Assembly (NCBI GenBank): GCA_047611865.1 | Contig: JBLFWS010000061.1 | Span: 1 to 16,735 of the forward strand | Direction of reading: 5' to 3' | DNA: 16,735 nt | From: Chlamydiales bacterium | GTDB taxonomy: Bacteria; Chlamydiota; Chlamydiia; Chlamydiales; JBDQID01 | Shown: positions 974 through 10,150 of the stretch, piece by piece | Numbering within the stretch: position 1 is the stretch's first letter | Layout: each line of letters opens with the position of its first letter | Notes under the pieces: model-generated | What the model saw: only the letters and a program-made list of their open reading frames with translations | Told to the model about the DNA's origin: nothing | Databases searched by the model: none | Translations under genes and position numbers: made by a program

Positions 974-2851
974 TTAAGCTCTGAACCATCCAAACCAGCG
1001 CCAGCTTTCATCACTAGTGACCGCTGGAGAGGTATGGCGGACAGCTTGTAGGGCTGTTGCCAGGTTTTCACCATTGGGACTTCCCCATCCTGTACAAGCA
1101 TCCCAGCCTTCTGTGGCCTTATACCCAGGCGTTGAGCTCACCTCGTTATCACCTTGCGTGATGTCATGGAAAGCGCCTCGGGACTCACCTATCTGGTATA
1201 GTTGTGGGTTTAAGAAACCCAAACGGGTGTCCATCTTTTGATTGAGCTGTGCAATCAATCCTGCCCAAAGAGGGGCCACAGCACTCGTTCCGCCTATGAC
1301 ACCCATTCCTTCTTTAAGACGAATCTCATATCCTGTGGAGGGATCAGCGACACCTGAAACATCGGGCACCCCTCGTCCCCAGTCTTTTCCCGTGTTTACG
1401 TTTACGGGCATATGAACAGCATTTTGGTAGCTTGGACGCTCCTCTAGCTCACTGATTCCACCACCTGTTGCTCCTCCATAGACATTATTCCAGACGACTT
1501 CGCTTTTGATCACATGATCAGCGGCTTCAAGTTTTGTACCTCCGCAAGAAAGTACATAGGGAGAGGCGGAGGGGAAGTCTACGTTTGCTTTATTATCCTG
1601 ATGAGGCCTCTCATCACTTGCACCCGCATCTCCAGCGGCTACACAAACACTTACATTGCGTACAGTAGCCGCTTCTTTAAAGGCTTGATCAAAGGATGTG
1701 CGATAGGGATTGTTTTGAGAGTCCCTTTGGTTCCAGACAGCTTCGGGAGAACCCCAGCTTATGGATATCACAGAGTTGTCATGTAATGGATCATGGGCTG
1801 CTTTTTTTACAGCACGGAGAAATCCTTCTGTGGTATTCGGGGCAAAATAAACAACGATGTCAGCCTCAGGAGCTACGGCACCTATGACTTCAATATCTAA
1901 GTAGACTTCTCCATCGGCATCTCTTGTTGGGCCATCGGGATCGTTTTTACCGCCAGCTACAGAAACACTGGTCACATTTGGAGGAGTTTCTAATCCGCAG
2001 TCTTCGGTGAAGTATTTTGTGAGGACTTCAGGATCATATCCTCCACCTAGCTCTATGATAGCTATCGACTGGCCTTTTCCAAGAGAGTCTTTGGGGAAAT
2101 TGTATATTTTAGAAAGGTCTGTGGGTAAAAAAGATTTTCTTTCACGAGTTTGACTTTCACTAGCGAAGCGAAACTTTGGTTGGAAAACGGGGCGAGTGTC
2201 CAGTCCAAAGACTCCCTCTATAATACCATGTAGAGATTCAGGCAAGTGGACAGGACCTGAGTGTCCACGATATTCGCCATTAGAATGTGAGTAGTTTTTT
2301 AGGGAAACACCAAAGGCTTTATTGATAGTTTTAGCAGTACCTGAGAGGACGACGATCCTTTCTCCGGCAGACGCTTCTACAATAGAAAGCCCATGAGCGT
2401 GAGAAAATTTCTCTACTAATTTTATGTCTTTTTTGTCAGCTCCGTATATTCGTGCAAATTCTTCTGCGGAGAGTGTTACTCTTTCAGTTTGTGGCTTTCC
2501 ATGGGCTTCTGTCATGGTGGGCAATTCTGGGTGTGATTCACGGTAGCGTAGATGAAGGGTGACTTCTACATGGTCATCTTCAGCAGGGGAGCCAATCATA
2601 GTAGCTCCTGTCATACGTGGAAGGCTGGAGTTGGGAATCGCCTTTAAGCTATGCATTGGATTGCGTTTGTGAGTTACGACATTTCGAGCAACTTCAGCAC
2701 CATCAAGTAATGAGATAGTACGGTTACTTAGCGGACTAATAGTATTTTGCACTTTATCATGAGATTCTGTTGCGGCTTCCACCAAAAGGGAACTTGAGTG
2801 AGCATGTACTCCTCCTCCTCCTGGACGTTCTGTGGCACTTGTAAAAGTCAT
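974..2851 (-). CDS. S53 family (kumamolisin/sedolisin-like) serine-carboxyl protease with prodomain
   Basis: Pro-kumamolisin-like prodomain (VEVTLHLR...FARIYGA...LSGTAKTINKAFGV). Catalytic motifs IAIIELGGG, GEVYLDIEV (Glu/Asp), SISWG, AAGDAG (oxyanion Asp), GRGVPDVSG, GGTSAVAPLWAG (Ser) and Ca-site GWDACTGWGS. Start placed at ATG 2851 because of an AGGAG SD; the ORF track extends to 2884. Confidence 0.95.
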   Translation of the reverse strand: MTFTSATERPGGGGVHAHSSSLLVEAATESHDKVQNTISPLSNRTISLLDGAEVARNVVTHKRNPMHSLKAIPNSSLPRMTGATMIGSPAEDDHVEVTLHLRYRESHPELPTMTEAHGKPQTERVTLSAEEFARIYGADKKDIKLVEKFSHAHGLSIVEASAGERIVVLSGTAKTINKAFGVSLKNYSHSNGEYRGHSGPVHLPESLHGIIEGVFGLDTRPVFQPKFRFASESQTRERKSFLPTDLSKIYNFPKDSLGKGQSIAIIELGGGYDPEVLTKYFTEDCGLETPPNVTSVSVAGGKNDPDGPTRDADGEVYLDIEVIGAVAPEADIVVYFAPNTTEGFLRAVKKAAHDPLHDNSVISISWGSPEAVWNQRDSQNNPYRTSFDQAFKEAATVRNVSVCVAAGDAGASDERPHQDNKANVDFPSASPYVLSCGGTKLEAADHVIKSEVVWNNVYGGATGGGISELEERPSYQNAVHMPVNVNTGKDWGRGVPDVSGVADPSTGYEIRLKEGMGVIGGTSAVAPLWAGLIAQLNQKMDTRLGFLNPQLYQIGESRGAFHDITQGDNEVSSTPGYKATEGWDACTGWGSPNGENLATALQAVRHTSPAVTSDESWRWFGWFRA

Positions 2852-2995
2852 AGGGGATCTCCTGGAATTTTCTGTGATCATCAAAGAATTTACTTACACA
2901 TCTGTAATTTGCCACCTTGGCACAAATGAGCATCAGAAATAAATATCCCTGTTTGAAATATTTGTAAATTGAAACATATAAAAAAAATGCTTAGG

Positions 2996-3214
2996 ATGGG
3001 GTTTCACCCCAAACCCCACCAAAGGGCTAACCCTCTGGGCTCCTGTGTAGTGGCCTTACACCGTAGGCGAATTGAAAAATCAGGAAAATATATCAGGTAC
3101 TTCTTTACTCTTCTTTTTTCAGTACTCGAAGAACTTCGTTCCTCTCGCAAGCAGTCAGCATCATTGTTCCAATGACGCTGAAAACTTCCACCTGCGGTGG
3201 TGTGACGATACCTG
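2996..3214 (-). repeat. Structured non-coding repeat element, copy A
   Basis: Its reverse complement aligns in conserved blocks with 3262-3477 (caggtatcgtca..., actgcttgcgagaggaacg, ccctttggtggggtttggggt..aaaccccat). Hairpins show compensatory changes between the copies. Confidence 0.88.
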
Positions 3215-3261
3215 AACTAATACGAATGATCAGACAAAGTTAGCTTAAGTTCATATTCTGA

Positions 3262-3477
3262 CAGGTATCGTCAACCGGCGAAGCCGGGCTTTTCAGTATC
3301 ATTGGAACAATGGTGCTGACTGCTTGCGAGAGGAACGGAGTTCATCGAGTACAGAGAATGAGTAAGATAGAGGAGCTTAAAGTGTATTGTAGCTTTTTCA
3401 GTTCGCTTACGGTGTAAGACAACTAAAGGGGAGTCCAGAGGGCTGGCCCTTTGGTGGGGTTTGGGGTAAAACCCCAT
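3262..3477 (+). repeat. Structured non-coding repeat element, copy B (inverted relative to copy A)
   Basis: Hairpins ccggc-gaa-gccgg (3275-3287), cagtatcattg-gaa-caatggtgctg (3294-3318), gaac-gga-gttc, ccagaggg..ccctttgg and ggggt-aaa-acccc, followed by a T-rich tract (3478-3508). Confidence 0.88.
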
Positions 3478-3538
3478 TTTTTCTTTCTTTCTTTCTTTTT
3501 TCTTTTCTACGTTGACCTTATTGTGTTTCGAATAGGCA

Positions 3539-4570
3539 TTAGACTTGATTGATACTTAAGACTTCATTTTCTAGAATTTGTGAGCTTTCATTTCGTTGTT
3601 TTGCTTGCTGAACTTTTTGGATAATAAGTTTGGTGGTGTATAGGGAGGAGAATGTAGTTATGATTCCGGCTTGTATGGCGGTGCCTGGGTAGAGGTCGGC
3701 GACAGCCATTCCGACATCTCCAGCAAAGTGTAGGACGATGTTTGCTTTGGCAACGAATTGTTGTGTCTCTATATTTTTTAGGGCTACGTGTGAGATAAGA
3801 CCTTTTATTTTATGAATATTATTGTCTTCGATTAATTGAATATCTTGTGAGAATTTTCTCCAGGTGTCTTTGTCCATACGCCCTCTGATGTAGGCGGCTT
3901 CCTGGCTGCCGAAAGTATTTTCAGGCAGTGCTATAGAGGGGGATGTGAATAAATGCTTGATAGTATGCAGTTCTACGTCGGAGAGACCATTTTTGAGCTG
4001 TCCGATGATACTTTTGTTTGTGAAGTATTCGAAAAAATCTATTCCTATACCTAGTACGATAGAGCTAACCCCCCACGGCCTGCTTATAGAGTATAGTTCA
4101 TCGGTAATGTCATTGTGATGGGTCATTCTTGTGATGGATGCAACACATCCACTAACTGTTAAGATTATTCCTGAAGCAATATAGACTACCTTTGCAGCAG
4201 AACTTATTAAAATTGTTTGGTTCCGAGTTTTCTTTGCGAGAGCAAAGTCACCAATGGTTTTATGCAGAAGACTTGCCTGAAAATTTAGTGAGACAAGCCC
4301 AATAAAATTGAGTGTAAAAAATGAAACATTCGTGATCTTTGGAGGAAAGCCTGGAACTGTTTCTCCGATTAGGAAAATGATGTCGACAGCTAAGATAGTG
4401 ACGCTTGATATGAGGTCGGTATATTTTTCGAGAAGGTCTCCTAGGCGGCACCTGCAGTTGGAGGAGGTATCCGTACATATCCTTCTCCACCATGTATTTT
4501 CTCTTGTATGGTACAAATCGTTTGTTGAGCTTGAGCTAGGAGCGAGGAGGGCGGTCGTCATAGTGGGCAT
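3539..4570 (-). CDS. Hypothetical multi-pass membrane protein (Inc/effector-like)
   Basis: 343-aa ORF with a Ser/Thr-rich N-terminus and several paired hydrophobic segments. No family recognised. Confidence 0.75.
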   Translation of the reverse strand: MPTMTTALLAPSSSSTNDLYHTRENTWWRRICTDTSSNCRCRLGDLLEKYTDLISSVTILAVDIIFLIGETVPGFPPKITNVSFFTLNFIGLVSLNFQASLLHKTIGDFALAKKTRNQTILISSAAKVVYIASGIILTVSGCVASITRMTHHNDITDELYSISRPWGVSSIVLGIGIDFFEYFTNKSIIGQLKNGLSDVELHTIKHLFTSPSIALPENTFGSQEAAYIRGRMDKDTWRKFSQDIQLIEDNNIHKIKGLISHVALKNIETQQFVAKANIVLHFAGDVGMAVADLYPGTAIQAGIITTFSSLYTTKLIIQKVQQAKQRNESSQILENEVLSINQV

Positions 4571-4594: not shown

Positions 4595-5991
4595 TCAGGG
4601 TGTTTCGATTTCTTGAATTTCGCCGAGTTCTTTTGCTGAGAGTGGACCTGTTTCTGAAGGGATTTTTTTAAGGATCTCAAAACGCTGGCGCAATAAAAGT
4701 TCCATCCCATTGTCAAAGTAGTCCACTTCAAGTCCATGTGCACCTTCTTTATACAAATCAATAAGAGCATTTAAGCGTTCGTCTGTTAGGTGATCGAGGA
4801 TGAATTGTTTACTTGCATCGGTGAATTTTTCTCTAGCAATATTTAGGTTTTTCCAAAGGTATTGTTTTATGGCTAGTGAGGAAGTAGATAACCCAGGGTT
4901 TTGTCTGGGAAGGCAATTGCCGTTGTCAATGCACTTGATGTCGACAATTTCTCCATCGTCTCCGAGTCTTATCATCCAGTTTTCTTCGTGTCGATCCAGG
5001 TTGGCAGTAAGGAAGTCAAAAAGCGTCATTTTTTGAAAGAGGGTTTTCTCGTCTTCGGAGAAAGACCGACCGGGCATTTCTAATTGTGACATCACTTCAG
5101 AAGCTTCTTGATACCCATGGAGGAATTCTAGAAAGGCACCGCTTTGATTTTCAATTTGAGTCATTACGGTACAAGGCGCCATGTTAAACCCAAAGGTTAT
5201 GTCAGCAAGAAAAGCCGCAACTTCACCCTTAGGTTGTGCCATGGGAGCTGTACTTAGCAGACTAATTTGCCCCACAGTCGAGTCAATCATTCGTTTAATG
5301 TTTTGTGTTAGTCCTAGCTGGTCTGAAGGGGTTTCGGGTTTGAAAACACCAATCTTTTCACCGTTGAGAGAAGCTAGTAAACTTGATCCGGTGGCTCCTT
5401 TGTTGGTTTTTTTTAAAGTCCTATCTTTATGGCAAGGCGGGGTTTTTGGATTTTATGGCTGAGCATGAGAGTGCGGGTGCTGATAGAGGTTTCATTGAGT
5501 TGAACGATTTTTTCAGAGAGATACTCCTCCCTTTTTTGGAAAGCCTTTAGTTTCGTATGGCTCTCTCCTATAATTTGAGGGGTACTTTTAAGTTCTCTTT
5601 CTTTTTCGGATGCTAAAAAGCTATCTTGCCAGCTTTTTATTTTGCTAATTTCTTTCCGGTTTTTTTCGAGGCTTTCTCTGGCTTCAGACAGGCTTTGGGT
5701 TCTACTTTTTAGTTCCTTATCTAATTGAGAGTAGTCAGAATCGATATACCTCAAGATATTGTTGTAGGCTTCGAGTTCATTGCGGTCGAAATGATTTATT
5801 GTCAGGCGAGAGAGTTTAGAAAGTAAAAAATACGTGATGGTTTTTTGTAGTGAGGCCTGGTCAAAGTTAAGGTTTTCTGCTGTGGAGGTTACTTCTATTA
5901 GTGCTTTTATCTTCACTACCAGGCGGGAAACAATCGCTTGCATGTTCTCATCTCCAATGGAGGCTTCTCCATTGGAGATGAGAATTTGCAT
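4595..5991 (-). pseudogene. Frameshifted PI4-kinase type II-like (PI3/PI4K superfamily) protein with an N-terminal coiled-coil region
   Basis: The frame of ORF 4595-5290 stays open upstream to 5452 and encodes KGATGSSLL...IGVFKPE (P-loop and Lys) before the annotated Met. It continues with GEVAAFLAD, GAFLEFLHG, LFDFLTANLDRHEENWMI and IDNGNCLP. The upstream ORF 5413-5991 overlaps this frame by ~40 nt and stops at a TAA within a T3A8 run. One extra base would fuse them into a ~465-aa protein. Confidence 0.8.
5945..5984. promoter_or_regulatory. Perfect 18-bp stem hairpin at the 5' end of the kinase gene
   Basis: ttctcatctccaatggag (5945-5962), loop gctt, ctccattggagatgagaa (5967-5984). Confidence 0.6.
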
Positions 5992-7281: not shown

Positions 7282-8265
7282 ATGGAATTAATTCGGGGGA
7301 AAATGATTTCAAATAAAGGTCTACAGGCTTGTACTTCTGTTCTAATGATTCGCCCAGTTTCTTTTTGTGGGAACTTGGAAACTCTATCAACGAATGCATT
7401 CCAGAAAAAGGATCATGGCTTGTCCTTAGGGGAGATTCAGAGCAGGGCTTTGGAAGAGTTTGACAATTATGTGAAGATCTTGCGCTCTCATGATGTTCTC
7501 GTTCACACTTTCGAAGATAATTCTGAGACTCATACTCCGGATAGTATTTATCCCAATAATTGGTTATCTGTACATCCAGATGGAAAAATACTCACTTATC
7601 CAATGGCGACGGAAAGCAGGAGGTTGGAGAGGAGAAGCGACATTATTGATTTCATAAAAGGCCATTATCAAATAACAGATCATCATGATCTTGGACATTA
7701 TGCTTCTGAGGGGCGTTATCTGGAAGGTACGGGAAGTGTGGTCTTTGACTATCCCCATAAGCGAGCATATGCTTGCTTATCAGCGAGAACGGATCAGGGA
7801 TTGTTTGAGGAACTTTGTGAATATTTGGAATATGAGGCAATTAGTTTTAGAGCTGTTGATGCCAAGCTTACAGCCATTTACCACACAAACGTTATGATGC
7901 ACGTGGGAGAAAGCTGTGCTGTTGTTTGTTTGGAAGTCGTTCCTGACTTTGGCGAAAGAGAGAAAATCCTTTCATCATTGAGAGAAACAGGTCATGAAGT
8001 GCTCTTGATCTCTTTGGATCAGATGAAAAGTTTTTGTGCGAATATTCTGGAAGTATCCAATCATAACGGTGAGGTGCTTCTGCTTATGTCCGAGCAGGCT
8101 AGAAAAGCTTATACAAAGCAACAACTTAGGCTTCTTGAGAAGAATACAAAAATACTTTCCACCTCCCTACAGACTATCGAAAGTGCTGGTGGAGGTGGGG
8201 CTAGGTGTATGCTTGCGGGAATTCACGCTGTTTCCCAAGATTGCTCCATCACATTTTCTCCGTAG
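7282..8265 (+). CDS. ctlX: CtlX-like citrulline utilization hydrolase (amidinotransferase/arginine deiminase superfamily)
   Basis: Motifs VLMIRPVSF, EEFDNYVKILR, TPDSIYPNNW, YPM..ESRRLERR, YLEGTGSVV, AYACLSART, IYHTNVMM and IESAGGGGARCM. The start could instead be ATG 7303. Confidence 0.88.
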   Translation: MELIRGKMISNKGLQACTSVLMIRPVSFCGNLETLSTNAFQKKDHGLSLGEIQSRALEEFDNYVKILRSHDVLVHTFEDNSETHTPDSIYPNNWLSVHPDGKILTYPMATESRRLERRSDIIDFIKGHYQITDHHDLGHYASEGRYLEGTGSVVFDYPHKRAYACLSARTDQGLFEELCEYLEYEAISFRAVDAKLTAIYHTNVMMHVGESCAVVCLEVVPDFGEREKILSSLRETGHEVLLISLDQMKSFCANILEVSNHNGEVLLLMSEQARKAYTKQQLRLLEKNTKILSTSLQTIESAGGGGARCMLAGIHAVSQDCSITFSP

Positions 8266-9947
8266 AAGAGTTCATACTCCTTCAAAATAGCGTTCATATA
8301 AGGAAAAAAGTCTTCAGGGCAGTTCATTTCTTTTCCATCTACTATTAGTGGCTGTTTGCGTTCGGAGTAAGATTTTCTTTCTTCATGAATGGCTTGAAGG
8401 AGGGTAGCCCATGAATAGGATGGCTCTGAGTTCAGAAGCTTCTCGTAGGTTTCGTAAATTTCTTTGAGCAGGTTTGTTAAAGGGCTATCCGGTAAATCGA
8501 GGAAGCCATACATTCCGTTAAAGTTTTTTCGGGCTTCCCATAAGATTTCCTTGAGATTGCCGCTTTGCCGTTTTTTGGAAAGGACTGAATGCGTGGCTTT
8601 TCGGAGGTTCTCAAAATCGTAGCTTTCTTTAAATGAGCTTGTTTGAAAGAAGTGGATTTCTGCTCCGTGGGATTGAAGAAGATATACCAGTTCCTGATGT
8701 TGCCTTTCTGCCAGACCTTTGTTTACTCTTCCGATATTGTTCTTCATGTAAGGGTCATTGACGTATACGACGTCAAATACCCCTCTTGGAGATTGAATAA
8801 TCTGGATTTTATTGTTTTTTGTTTCTTCAGGGCTAAAAATATCCTCTTCTAGTTCAAGAATGAGGCATTTAGCTCCTCCACCTGCTTTGTAGAATTCTGA
8901 CAGGTTGATAGGGATGACTTCTAAGCCTCTTGTTTCTAGCTGTGTTTTTAGGGAGTAACTAACCCGGTGGTCTATGATGAAAGATTTTCCAATACAAACG
9001 GAATTGCAGGAGAAATTTTCAGCATCCTCTTTTGAAATACTTAGGGCGTCGGGAAAGGTCCTTTTTAAAAGACTTTGAGTCTCTTCACTAAAAGCTTGGG
9101 GGTAATACATGATGGTTTCACCAATGATTCTCCCATTTCTAATAATAGGAATTTCCCTTAAAGCAGTATCTAAGTGGTAAAAGTCTTCGGTGATAATTTC
9201 AGCGGGGATGATGTTAACTTTTTCGAAGTCTTCACCCATGAGTTCATGCATTTTATCTGTAACCCACTCAATGCTTTCTTTGGATGTGCGTATGCCCCAT
9301 CCAAAAACGATGTCTACCATATGGCCGTGCTTGACATACTTAATTTCAGCGCTGGCCTCGAAAGAAAGGTGATTGGGAACTTCGATGATTTGGTATCCGT
9401 TTTCAAGAAACCATGAGCGGTTATATTTTATTTCTTCCAAGCGGGTATCGTGGCCGTGCTCTGATGAGTAGTTACCAAGAAAGACATAGGGTTTTTTATT
9501 CTTAACAGGGACTATGAAGCCCGACTCTGCCCTGAAAACAATATCTGGAACTTGGCGTGAAATGTATCGTTGATATCTTTCAGAAATACGTACGATGTGT
9601 TGGTAGATTTCTTCTGAGGAAAAGCTTGATCTTAAGAGTTCTTTTTTCCTTTCGGATACTTCGTTGATCAATGTATTAAATAAGGATTCGGGACATGGCT
9701 GAATATCGCCTTTGCTTTTTAGATACAGCATAATCGCTGGGCCTAATTCTGTAGCCTCATCGAGGATTTCCTCAAGTTTTATTCCGGGAGCTTCCCTTTT
9801 TTCAATTTCGCGTTCTTTGTCGATAGATTTTTGAAGCTTTATTACGGAAAAGTTTGGAGTGCGAGAAATTAAATTCAGGTATCTTGACATGATCGACTCT
9901 AAGGGGAAATGGCTGCGTATATCAGATTCTTGTGTAGATGTTAACAT
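8223..9947 (-). CDS. Amidinotransferase/DDAH/arginine dihydrolase-like protein with permuted domain order and extra N- and C-terminal regions
   Basis: Motifs VPDIVF, SFEASAE, FGWGIRT, FYHLDT, MYYPQAF, EDAENFSCNSV and SEFYKAGGGAKCL, followed by the normally N-terminal segment SPRGVFDVVYVNDPYM..GRVNKGLAERQHQEL...HGAEIH. Start placed at ATG 9947 (GGAG SD); the ORF track begins at 10010. Overlaps the ctlX-like gene by 43 bp at the 3' ends. Confidence 0.85.
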   Translation of the reverse strand: MLTSTQESDIRSHFPLESIMSRYLNLISRTPNFSVIKLQKSIDKEREIEKREAPGIKLEEILDEATELGPAIMLYLKSKGDIQPCPESLFNTLINEVSERKKELLRSSFSSEEIYQHIVRISERYQRYISRQVPDIVFRAESGFIVPVKNKKPYVFLGNYSSEHGHDTRLEEIKYNRSWFLENGYQIIEVPNHLSFEASAEIKYVKHGHMVDIVFGWGIRTSKESIEWVTDKMHELMGEDFEKVNIIPAEIITEDFYHLDTALREIPIIRNGRIIGETIMYYPQAFSEETQSLLKRTFPDALSISKEDAENFSCNSVCIGKSFIIDHRVSYSLKTQLETRGLEVIPINLSEFYKAGGGAKCLILELEEDIFSPEETKNNKIQIIQSPRGVFDVVYVNDPYMKNNIGRVNKGLAERQHQELVYLLQSHGAEIHFFQTSSFKESYDFENLRKATHSVLSKKRQSGNLKEILWEARKNFNGMYGFLDLPDSPLTNLLKEIYETYEKLLNSEPSYSWATLLQAIHEERKSYSERKQPLIVDGKEMNCPEDFFPYMNAILKEYELFYGENVMEQSWETA

Positions 9948-10150
9948 GCTTGGCTCCAGAGGAAATAGTTGGATTTGTTTCGGTATATTCAAAAAGAGAG
10001 GCAAACACAATTTAGTGATCCTTTCAATAGGATATTGCGTATTTTGAAAGTATTTGCAGAGCGTTTATGGGAGATGGATCTTTTCTAGATGCGTAAATAT
10101 TTGATTTTAATATAGATAAGTGGTAATTTAGACGTTTTTATTAAGACTAT

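Follow-up and report, generated by a model that had tools for sequence, protein, structure and literature searches.

A head-to-head pair of hairpin repeats in a chlamydial genome: a probable REP/BIME/REPIN-type family whose 3' module recurs in many phyla

Repetitive extragenic palindromes (REPs) are tagged stem-loops, found as head-to-head dimers within 20 bp of the ends of upstream open reading frames (ORFs), and together with bacterial interspersed mosaic elements (BIMEs) they are thought to act in ending or stabilising transcripts (available text of PMC3733652). Another group of oriented repeats, NTS, carries a GTC-containing head that is essential, is recognised only as single-stranded DNA (ssDNA), is cut by single-domain GIY-YIG nucleases and is abundant in host-associated bacteria (available text of PMC11893778). 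Compared here with such systems is a pair of structured elements at positions 2996 to 3477 of a 16,735-nt stretch (the window), which is contig C61 of the 3.59-Mb assembly of an uncultured chlamydia (G000; 272 contigs, 95.5% complete). The pair is probably one head-to-head dimer of a mosaic intergenic repeat of REP/BIME/REPIN type, as suggested by its tagged stem-loops, the copying of whole dimers, the placement at ORF ends, the association with other repeats, the apparently neutral decay and the lack of an enzyme of its own.

The initial annotation had described two diverged copies pointing away from a spacer, and this arrangement was recovered as an inverted repeat whose arms are complementary at 87% (2996-3079/3394-3477), 90% (3116-3184/3290-3358) and 79% (3203-3226/3250-3273). 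Both units consist of six hairpins, are placed head-to-head and share 80% identity by BLAST. Their limits and parts, including the four hairpins quoted in that annotation, all of which are read in the sequence at their sites, are as follows.

2993-3216, minus strand: copy 1 of the unit, a full repeat of about 200 nt (covariance-model match, 187.7 bits)
3260-3480, plus strand: copy 2 of the unit, a full repeat (covariance-model match, 183.8 bits)
3217-3259, no strand: spacer of the dimer, 43 nt between the covariance-model limits (47 by the limits of the initial annotation)
3217-3228, minus strand, and 3248-3259, plus strand: conserved unit leaders TTCRTATTNN, forming the ends of the spacer
3188-3200, minus strand: hairpin 1 (hp1) of copy 1, CCACC-GCA-GGTGG
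3188-3208, minus strand: hp1 of copy 1 with ATCGTCAC beside it, the reverse complement of 3201-3208
3275-3287, plus strand: hp1 of copy 2, CCGGC-GAA-GCCGG
3267-3287, plus strand: 5' motif ATCGTCAA plus hp1 of copy 2; its GTC is invariant in 24 of 24 copies (columns G11, T12 and C13)
3156-3180, minus strand: hairpin 2 (hp2) of copy 1
3294-3318, plus strand: hp2 of copy 2, a GAA loop on a stem of 11-12 bp
3131-3141, minus strand: hairpin 3 (hp3) of copy 1, GAAC-GAA-GTTC
3333-3343, plus strand: hp3 of copy 2, GAAC-GGA-GTTC, within the conserved GCGAGAG...TCGAG
3076-3126, minus strand: middle stretch of copy 1, variable in length
3348-3405, plus strand: middle stretch of copy 2, variable in length and poorly aligned across the family
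2996-3046, minus strand: 3' module of copy 1, with Pb, the last hairpin (2997-3011), Pa (3019-3038) and then the tag (nhmmer match C61:3068-2996)
3428-3477, plus strand: 3' module of copy 2, with the tag GGGGAGT, Pa (3435-3454), GGGGTTT and Pb, the last hairpin (3462-3476)

The RNAalifold consensus of 24 aligned copies has 40 pairs in six helices, and structure has been kept through sequence change, as had been claimed from the two copies alone. Pairing is found in 96.1% of cells, compared with 91.5% in shuffles, and both-side changes occur in 13 of the 40 pairs, compared with 5.5 in shuffles; neither value was reached by any of 500 shuffles, and sliding the partners by 1-3 columns lowers pairing to 32-49%. 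In hp1, the pairs change between CG and GC in four copies and vary further among AU, GC and GU, while hp2 has both-side changes in 7 of its 12 pairs and G-U pairs on the outward strand only. The predicted pairs hold 101 G-T cells and only 7 A-C cells; as the consensus itself was predicted on the outward strand, folding of both strands serves as the unbiased check of strand preference. The outward strand is the more stable in 24 of 24 copies (mean -68.9 versus -55.3 kcal/mol), so the preference for this strand, also proposed initially, holds. When DNA parameters are used, copy 2 reaches -35.3 kcal/mol (z -4.1), compared with -30.6 kcal/mol (z -4.0) for its complement. The abundance of GNA triloops applies to most loops within this genome and does not extend to relatives. 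The unit also contains long invariant unpaired stretches. A coding function was rejected, as the inward 68-aa ORFs are not conserved (at least 60 open codons in 11 of 24 copies inward and in 8 of 24 on the other strand) and have no Pfam match. The element is therefore structured, strand-asymmetric and non-coding.

The pair belongs to a family dispersed through the genome. One copy used as a BLAST query gives 36 matches in G000, and the covariance model, built from 24 copies, gives 42, of which 25 are full-length (150-228 bits) and 17 partial. Separate nhmmer profiles recover 28 5' halves and 39 3' halves, with many 3' modules occurring alone, lacking the 5' part, and with no ORF between any 5' half and its 3' half. 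Head-to-head pairs stand at eight sites (contigs C61, C58, C18, C25, C157, C149, C85 and C139), with spacers of 14 to 409 nt. The mean pairwise identity of 76% (range 66-93%) shows that the copies are old. Their most conserved part is the 3' module, whereas the middle stretch differs mainly in length, from about 25 to 60 nt; hence the poorly aligned middle of the initial annotation is real, though as a stretch of variable length and not as a cassette. Upstream of the units, the 24-copy alignment gives the consensus aTTC.TATTcT. The leader preceding GACAGG, 20-25 nt upstream of unit starts, is often an imperfect GTATTC tandem (GTATTCGTATTCT), for example at C58:10340-10360. A "mini-unit" at C30:6130-6196 has the 5' motif CGTCAC joined almost directly to the 3' module, and looks as if the intervening stretch of about 130 nt had been deleted.

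Copying within the genome is visible at the level of the dimer. Between the dimers on C149 and C58, identity is 88.9% across 468 nt that include the two arms and the spacer, while their flanks are unrelated; the dimers on C18 and C25 are related likewise, arms and spacer being homologous and flanks unrelated. In these two pairs of dimers the inverted doublet was thus copied whole, similar to REPINs, in which the inverted doublet with its spacer replicates, singlets look like leftovers and the population is diverse and long-lived (available text of PMC3116915). Regarding decay, singleton substitutions amount to 0.41 per paired column and 0.49 per unpaired column in a small test of 75 substitutions, and 22 of the 33 located in stems break their pair; private stem mutations break pairs about as often as neutral decay predicts. 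Consequently, the compensatory change lies between subfamilies, which is expected if the structure matters for copying and not for the resident copy, and the behaviour of the family is that of a DNA replicator and not of 25 RNA genes under maintenance, judging from the copying of whole pairs and the neutral-looking stem mutations. Of the two options given in the initial annotation, a non-autonomous mobilised element or a transcribed non-coding RNA pair, the former fits better with 25 full copies, 17 fragments and such whole-pair copying. The family multiplies inside its genome, in at least some cases as entire dimers, and the copies then decay roughly neutrally in place. The hairpins may act as recognition structures for a trans-acting enzyme not encoded beside the repeats, and the elements would persist at gene 3' ends either where their position and orientation are tolerated or where they are mildly useful for ending or stabilising transcripts.

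The units keep a constant position and orientation relative to genes. In G000, 31 of the 39 3' modules are faced by a convergent ORF (90 codons or longer) whose stop codon is no more than about 200 nt away, in most cases 2-60 nt; 8 of these 31 are tandem neighbours with four ORFs shared among them. Nine of nine single full units with a judgeable neighbour follow the same rule, four of them between co-directional genes, and so does copy 2 in the window, which lies 60 nt from the stop codon of the gene at 3539-4570. Copy 1 does not follow it, as it lies upstream of the sedolisin gene at 974-2884 and in the same direction. A convergent ORF end also faces 42 of 52 modules in four other chlamydial genomes, and in the cross-phylum set, among the matches listed, the gene on the 3' side of the motif is convergent in 23 of 29 Pfam-confirmed cases. 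No common theme was found among the neighbouring genes. By GC skew, which is strong here (|0.07-0.2|), single copies are divided 8:8 between the replication strands; therefore, the orientation follows the gene and not the replication fork. Replication-coupled ssDNA transposition predicts orientation by replication direction, and the even split does not agree with it. The outward strand is G-rich (30.6% G, 20.5% C) and antisense to the gene, so that an mRNA reading through the unit would carry the C-rich complement. Neither this placement behind stop codons, antisense to the gene, nor the occurrence of the 3' module in many phyla was part of the initial annotation.

As for relatives, a BLAST match was obtained in 3 of 40, confined to the last ~50 nt of the unit, while the covariance model matches 21 of 150 other genomes of the order, from many families, at 20-57 bits and often with at least 10 copies. 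The shared part is the 3' module, composed of a tag, a freely varying hairpin, GGGGTTT and a second hairpin, and in general form a GGGT/GAGT tag, a hairpin of free sequence, GGGGT and TTGGGGC-N3-GCCCCAA. The tag stands directly before Pa and reads GAGT/GTGT in G000 and GGGT across phyla. Two relatives (G107 and G144) have compact palindromic dimers of 150-250 nt, and two others (G011 and G138) have 5' extensions of their own. The 5' 140 nt of the unit gave no comparable matches in the order, and a 22-mer from it gave 0 matches in the metagenome collection. The 3' ~50 nt is an older, separable module; the 5' ~140 nt extend it and were met in no other lineage.

The core of this module, GGGGTTTGGGGY-N3-RCCCC, reaches far beyond chlamydiae. 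The pattern GGGGTTTGGGGYNNNRCCCC occurs at no fewer than 126 loci of the species-genome collection, those listed spanning at least Bacillota, Pseudomonadota, Bacteroidota, Actinomycetota, Planctomycetota, Acidobacteriota, Chloroflexota, Spirochaetota, Synergistota and others, and at 66 loci in viral contigs; two records titled Chlamydiales or Chlamydiia hold the core among the matches listed. Single core matches in GC-rich genomes can be due to chance, but the surrounding context cannot. Among the matches listed, AA follows the core in 132 of 181 instances (the viral scan itself required AA), a strict hairpin ends 0-2 nt before the core in 88 of 181, compared with 12 of 183 at a control position, and GGGT precedes that hairpin in 35 of the 88. 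When only the listed genome loci are considered, 68 of 120 have the abutting hairpin, with 67 different arms. The strand bias of these listed cross-phylum hairpins is 14 G-T versus 12 A-C under the strict definition and 16 versus 5 under the looser one. Exact copies of the core number 153 (in an acidobacterium), 46, 23 and 71 in four non-chlamydial genomes and 1 in a fifth, the reversed control giving 0. Rfam gave nothing above threshold for 39 different cross-phylum loci (two batches of 20, with locus L145 in both), the best score being 29.1 bits for Clostridiales-2 against a threshold of 58.6. Three loci in metagenome-assembled genomes of Clostridia (L119, L148 and L161) have such sub-threshold Clostridiales-2 (RF02937) matches, at 23.7-29.1 bits for a gathering score of 58.6; that family also has a GGGGT-tagged hairpin and may be kin to the cross-phylum module. 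In the window itself, Rfam has 0 matches at the gathering score and only chance-level ones around the element at E <= 10, in line with the initial remark that no named family was recognised. The motif letters were found in no relevant paper, a paper on a REP survey tool has nothing on the motif, and the "short RNA elements" of Geobacter are a different palindrome. Likewise, the literature search returned nothing relevant on REP, REPIN, RAYT or MITE (miniature inverted-repeat transposable element) repeats in chlamydiae.

Comparing the unit with REP/BIME elements, both consist of dispersed stem-loops that are GC-rich, contain no gene and carry an unpaired tag on one side, and both occur mostly as head-to-head dimers between convergent or co-directional genes near the 3' end of the upstream ORF, and are often mosaic with other repeats (available text of PMC3733652); the 42 dispersed tagged copies, the 8 head-to-head pairs and the 31 of 39 modules beside convergent ORF ends reproduce these features. 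The absence of a dedicated transposase is shared with the CGTC repeats, for which none was found according to the same text (PMC3733652). Besides these similarities, there are clear differences. The unit has about 200 nt and six hairpins, while a REP, in the texts available, is a single hairpin of 20-40 nt. The tag of the shared module is GGGT/GAGT instead of the GTAG or CGTC of the REP superfamilies, and hp1, despite having CGTC, has a 5-bp stem and a triloop, in contrast to the stems of 8-9 bp, loops of 4-5 nt and CCA tail of CGTC repeats (available text of PMC3733652); membership in the GTAG and CGTC superfamilies was thus rejected on the tag and on the stem and loop of hp1. Moreover, the core 20-mer hardly changes from phylum to phylum, whereas REP families, as far as the available texts describe them, are mostly lineage-specific, and single copies of the unit have a fixed orientation to the upstream gene, unlike the REPs of those texts.

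The unit also resembles NTS, the target of the Ssn nucleases, as an oriented hairpin repeat with an unpaired GTC-containing head and a spread across phyla (available text of PMC11893778), and ATCGTCAC followed by a hairpin at the unit 5' end recalls both CGTC and NTS repeats (available text of PMC11893778 and PMC3733652). Ssn was nonetheless rejected as a partner: the SRM pattern HGTCWY...RNCYNB is present in 0 of 24 units on either strand, and, in place of the small single-domain GIY-YIG gene that such systems have, usually with the repeats on its flanks, the only GIY-YIG proteins are UvrC-sized, with 671 aa in G000 and 605-655 aa in four of five other carriers, the fifth (G144) having no match. 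With regard to REPIN-RAYT systems, in which the repeats are tied to a REP-associated tyrosine transposase (RAYT), no RAYT flanked by the repeats was found, and the RAYT-like and IS200-like genes of G000 have other flanks. In addition, several carriers have no Y1 transposase, and the arms of the unit are about ten times the REP length given in the available texts. Since these defining features were looked for and did not agree, the family is not a GTAG, a CGTC/SRM or a RAYT-linked one.

Correia/NEMIS, ERIC, RUP and the Rickettsia RPE are imperfect intergenic palindromes of 100-250 bp, with effects thought to act via transcripts. The unit differs from them, having no terminal inverted repeats, no visible target duplication, no related transposase and a core shared across phyla. 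A MITE was rejected because there are no inverted termini within the unit, no duplication at dimer ends and no ORF between the 5' and 3' halves. The same outcome was obtained for a guide-RNA scaffold (TnpB/IscB omega-RNA, bridge RNA or crRNA): the genome has no TnpB zinc-ribbon domain match, IS110 not being searched, and the middles of the two window copies match nothing else in G000 beyond chance A/T-rich words, which leaves the initially suggested scaffold with a variable guide segment without its targets. A PATE derived from IS200/IS605 was also set aside, as the IS200-like element has flanks unlike the unit and orientation is 8:8 by GC skew. A DUF222-HNH endonuclease was discarded as well, the core motif lying outside its 1.9-kb repeat and the family being absent from G000 and three other carriers. 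This repeat, a DUF222 and HNH endonuclease gene of an acidobacterial chromosome (G151, loci L322-L327), has 17 family matches and about 12 gene copies, six of which are 73-90% identical (four at 87-90%) and often stand in repeat-rich regions that hold the core motif.

As had been noticed at the outset, no cognate enzyme is encoded within the window. In the whole genome, Y1_Tnp has five matches, none flanked by units (search with filters off), so the presumed HUH/RAYT link was not borne out; the domain is present in 74 of 150 genomes of the order, although no match was obtained in two carriers, G138 and G144, each with at least 14 modules, nor in three of four motif-rich genomes of other phyla. 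RAYT/IS200 was accordingly rejected as the partner, Y1 genes being without flanking units and Y1_Tnp missing from several carriers. Among the Y1 genes of G000, an IS200-like transposase of 150 aa (C24:29143-30075, locus L069; NCBIfam transpos_IS200, 72 bits) is flanked by inverted repeats with the hairpin CCCAGGGC-AA-GCCCTGGG, and truncated copies of the gene are present on C195 (L072) and C51 (L070, L073). A 321-aa protein on C112 (L071:1474-2439) has a RAYT-like N-terminal domain (REP_Tyr_transpos, 71 bits for a cut-off of 80) and a helix-turn-helix region like the DnaA C-terminus, and its gene is not flanked by repeats. The hairpins flanking the IS200-like transposase are unrelated to the unit. 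These flanks also occur as a gene-less palindrome of about 200 bp, at the following places.

C18:10517-10751: IS200-flank palindrome
C30:5902-6110: IS200-flank palindrome
C14:12740-12935: IS200-flank palindrome
C100:8213-8413: IS200-flank palindrome
C27, C177, C179, C244, C103, C224 and C55: halves of the IS200-flank palindrome

At 7 of about 15 loci, the distance between this palindrome and a unit's 5' end is about 100 nt, and the palindrome sits at the centre of the head-to-head dimers of C18 and C30. A possible cause of such co-location is that a long palindrome exposes its loop as ssDNA, which attracts ssDNA transposons; a functional link is another.

Some results weigh against the REP/BIME/REPIN-type reading. 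The decay argument depends on the few substitutions of the singleton test. No target-site duplication was found at pair ends, and no mobilising enzyme among the candidates RAYT, Ssn and TnpB. An orthologous empty site was sought as well: the sedolisin gene was not found in the only genome of the same family (68% complete), a DNA query from one species had no match in its congener, and the contigs of four DNA runs were fragments that broke off at the repeats, none of their joints being informative. The case for mobility is therefore built on the copies inside this one genome. No RNA run containing the element appeared among the public runs. Furthermore, the gene-relative orientation is unexplained by any known REP mechanism and may point to a role at the RNA level, and the elaboration of the unit with its long invariant unpaired stretches, far beyond described REPs, could reflect a function of each copy. 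The elaborate conserved 5' part, the gene-following orientation and the near-invariant cross-phylum core are unexplained and keep the rival explanations alive.

One of them takes the units as small-RNA genes, each giving a structured outward RNA of about 200 nt, with pairs transcribed divergently. The last hairpin would close this RNA, which would be antisense to the 3' end of the adjacent mRNA. The folding and G-U pairing that favour the outward strand agree with it, as do the long invariant unpaired stretches, the constant position and orientation to genes and a conserved TATTCT that stands 0-2 nt ahead of the unit and is a possible -10 box. Both window copies even end in the form of an intrinsic terminator, a GC-rich hairpin followed by a T-run. 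However, the T-rich DNA reported initially after the last hairpin is a property of these two copies and not of the family, being near only 4 of 35 anchored modules in G000, and even a relaxed sigma-70-like -35/-10 site is found in only 4 of 28 units, which also counts against the divergently transcribed non-coding RNA pair of the initial annotation. The near-neutral rate at which private mutations disrupt stems, the many 3' modules that occur without a 5' part and the small strand bias of the cross-phylum hairpin beside the core make small-RNA genes seem unlikely. An equally unlikely explanation is a host-selected signal in the 3' untranslated region, acting in the mRNA sense, where the C-rich complement would load Rho or block 3' exonucleases and the arms would insulate convergent genes. 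It is supported by units standing 2-60 nt behind stop codons in one gene-relative orientation that is independent of the replication strand, by an mRNA-sense strand with about 31-36% C and 20-22% G that folds less well than the outward one, and by the similar roles of REP/BIME elements (available text of PMC3733652). On the other hand, neither Rho loading nor exonuclease blocking needs an identical core of 16-20 nt across phyla, selection on base pairs acts in favour of the other strand, no theme unites the genes concerned and most genes have no element; the neutral-looking decay argues against selection on each copy, and copy 1 is in front of a gene, not behind one.

A further explanation, more doubtful still, sees the units as ends or passengers of HUH/Y1 ssDNA transposition, mobilised by the IS200-like transposase of G000 in a PATE- or REPIN-like way. 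The genome does have this transposase with its hairpin-bearing flanks, its fragments and the RAYT-like 321-aa gene, and the IS200-flank palindrome near unit 5' ends at 7 of about 15 loci and within the C18 and C30 dimers fits as well. Hairpins with C(GNA)G triloops are typical of stable ssDNA structures. But the transposase has flanking hairpins that show no relation to the unit, no Y1 gene has units on its flanks, Y1_Tnp gives no match in G138, in G144 or in three of the four motif-rich genomes from other phyla, orientation is independent of the replication strand, and the palindrome may only show that its loop is a good ssDNA target.

Beyond the REP/BIME/REPIN-type reading of the pair, a more tentative proposal concerns the 3' module, which might represent a third tagged hairpin-repeat superfamily, present in many phyla and uncatalogued. 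Its near-invariant core would be where a conserved, strand-specific, trans-acting protein binds or cuts, the fixed antisense placement at stop codons would stem from a step coupled to transcription, either in its spread or in its use, and the chlamydial 200-nt unit would be its most elaborate known derivative. The analogy for such a protein could be the CGTC repeats, which had no known partner until the Ssn nucleases were found. As the cross-phylum core is not associated with RAYT or Ssn, a recognition system not yet described is suggested; the 20-nt core with its free-sequence hairpin is found in Chlamydiota, Acidobacteriota, Bacillota, Pseudomonadota and other phyla, with 20-150 copies per genome. 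REP-like repeat families of this kind are not known from environmental chlamydiae in the literature searched; such repeats break assemblies and can mislead the prediction of small RNAs and terminators. Additionally, the gene-following orientation offers a handle on whether transcript selection or the insertion mechanism places REP-like repeats.

Regarding the surroundings of the pair, the window has no tRNA or tmRNA, and the 343-aa protein next to copy 2 has no relatives in the metagenome collection. The two adjacent genes are given below.

974-2884, minus strand: sedolisin-type peptidase gene, with a Pro-kumamolisin activation domain plus S8/S53
3539-4570, minus strand: gene of 343 aa without a family match, convergent with copy 2 and stopping 60 nt from the 3' end of that unit

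A T/C-rich simple repeat, (TTTC)n-like, occupies 3478-3510, between copy 2 and the stop of the gene at 3539-4570. Further along the window, two matches to DDAH_eukar, the "eukaryotic" dimethylarginine dimethylaminohydrolase, are located at 7282-8265 (plus strand) and 8223-10010 (minus strand), one of them strong at 312 bits, and a 231-aa ORF at 4595-5290 (minus strand) matches PI3/PI4-kinase below the threshold; all three are eukaryote-like genes within a chlamydial genome.

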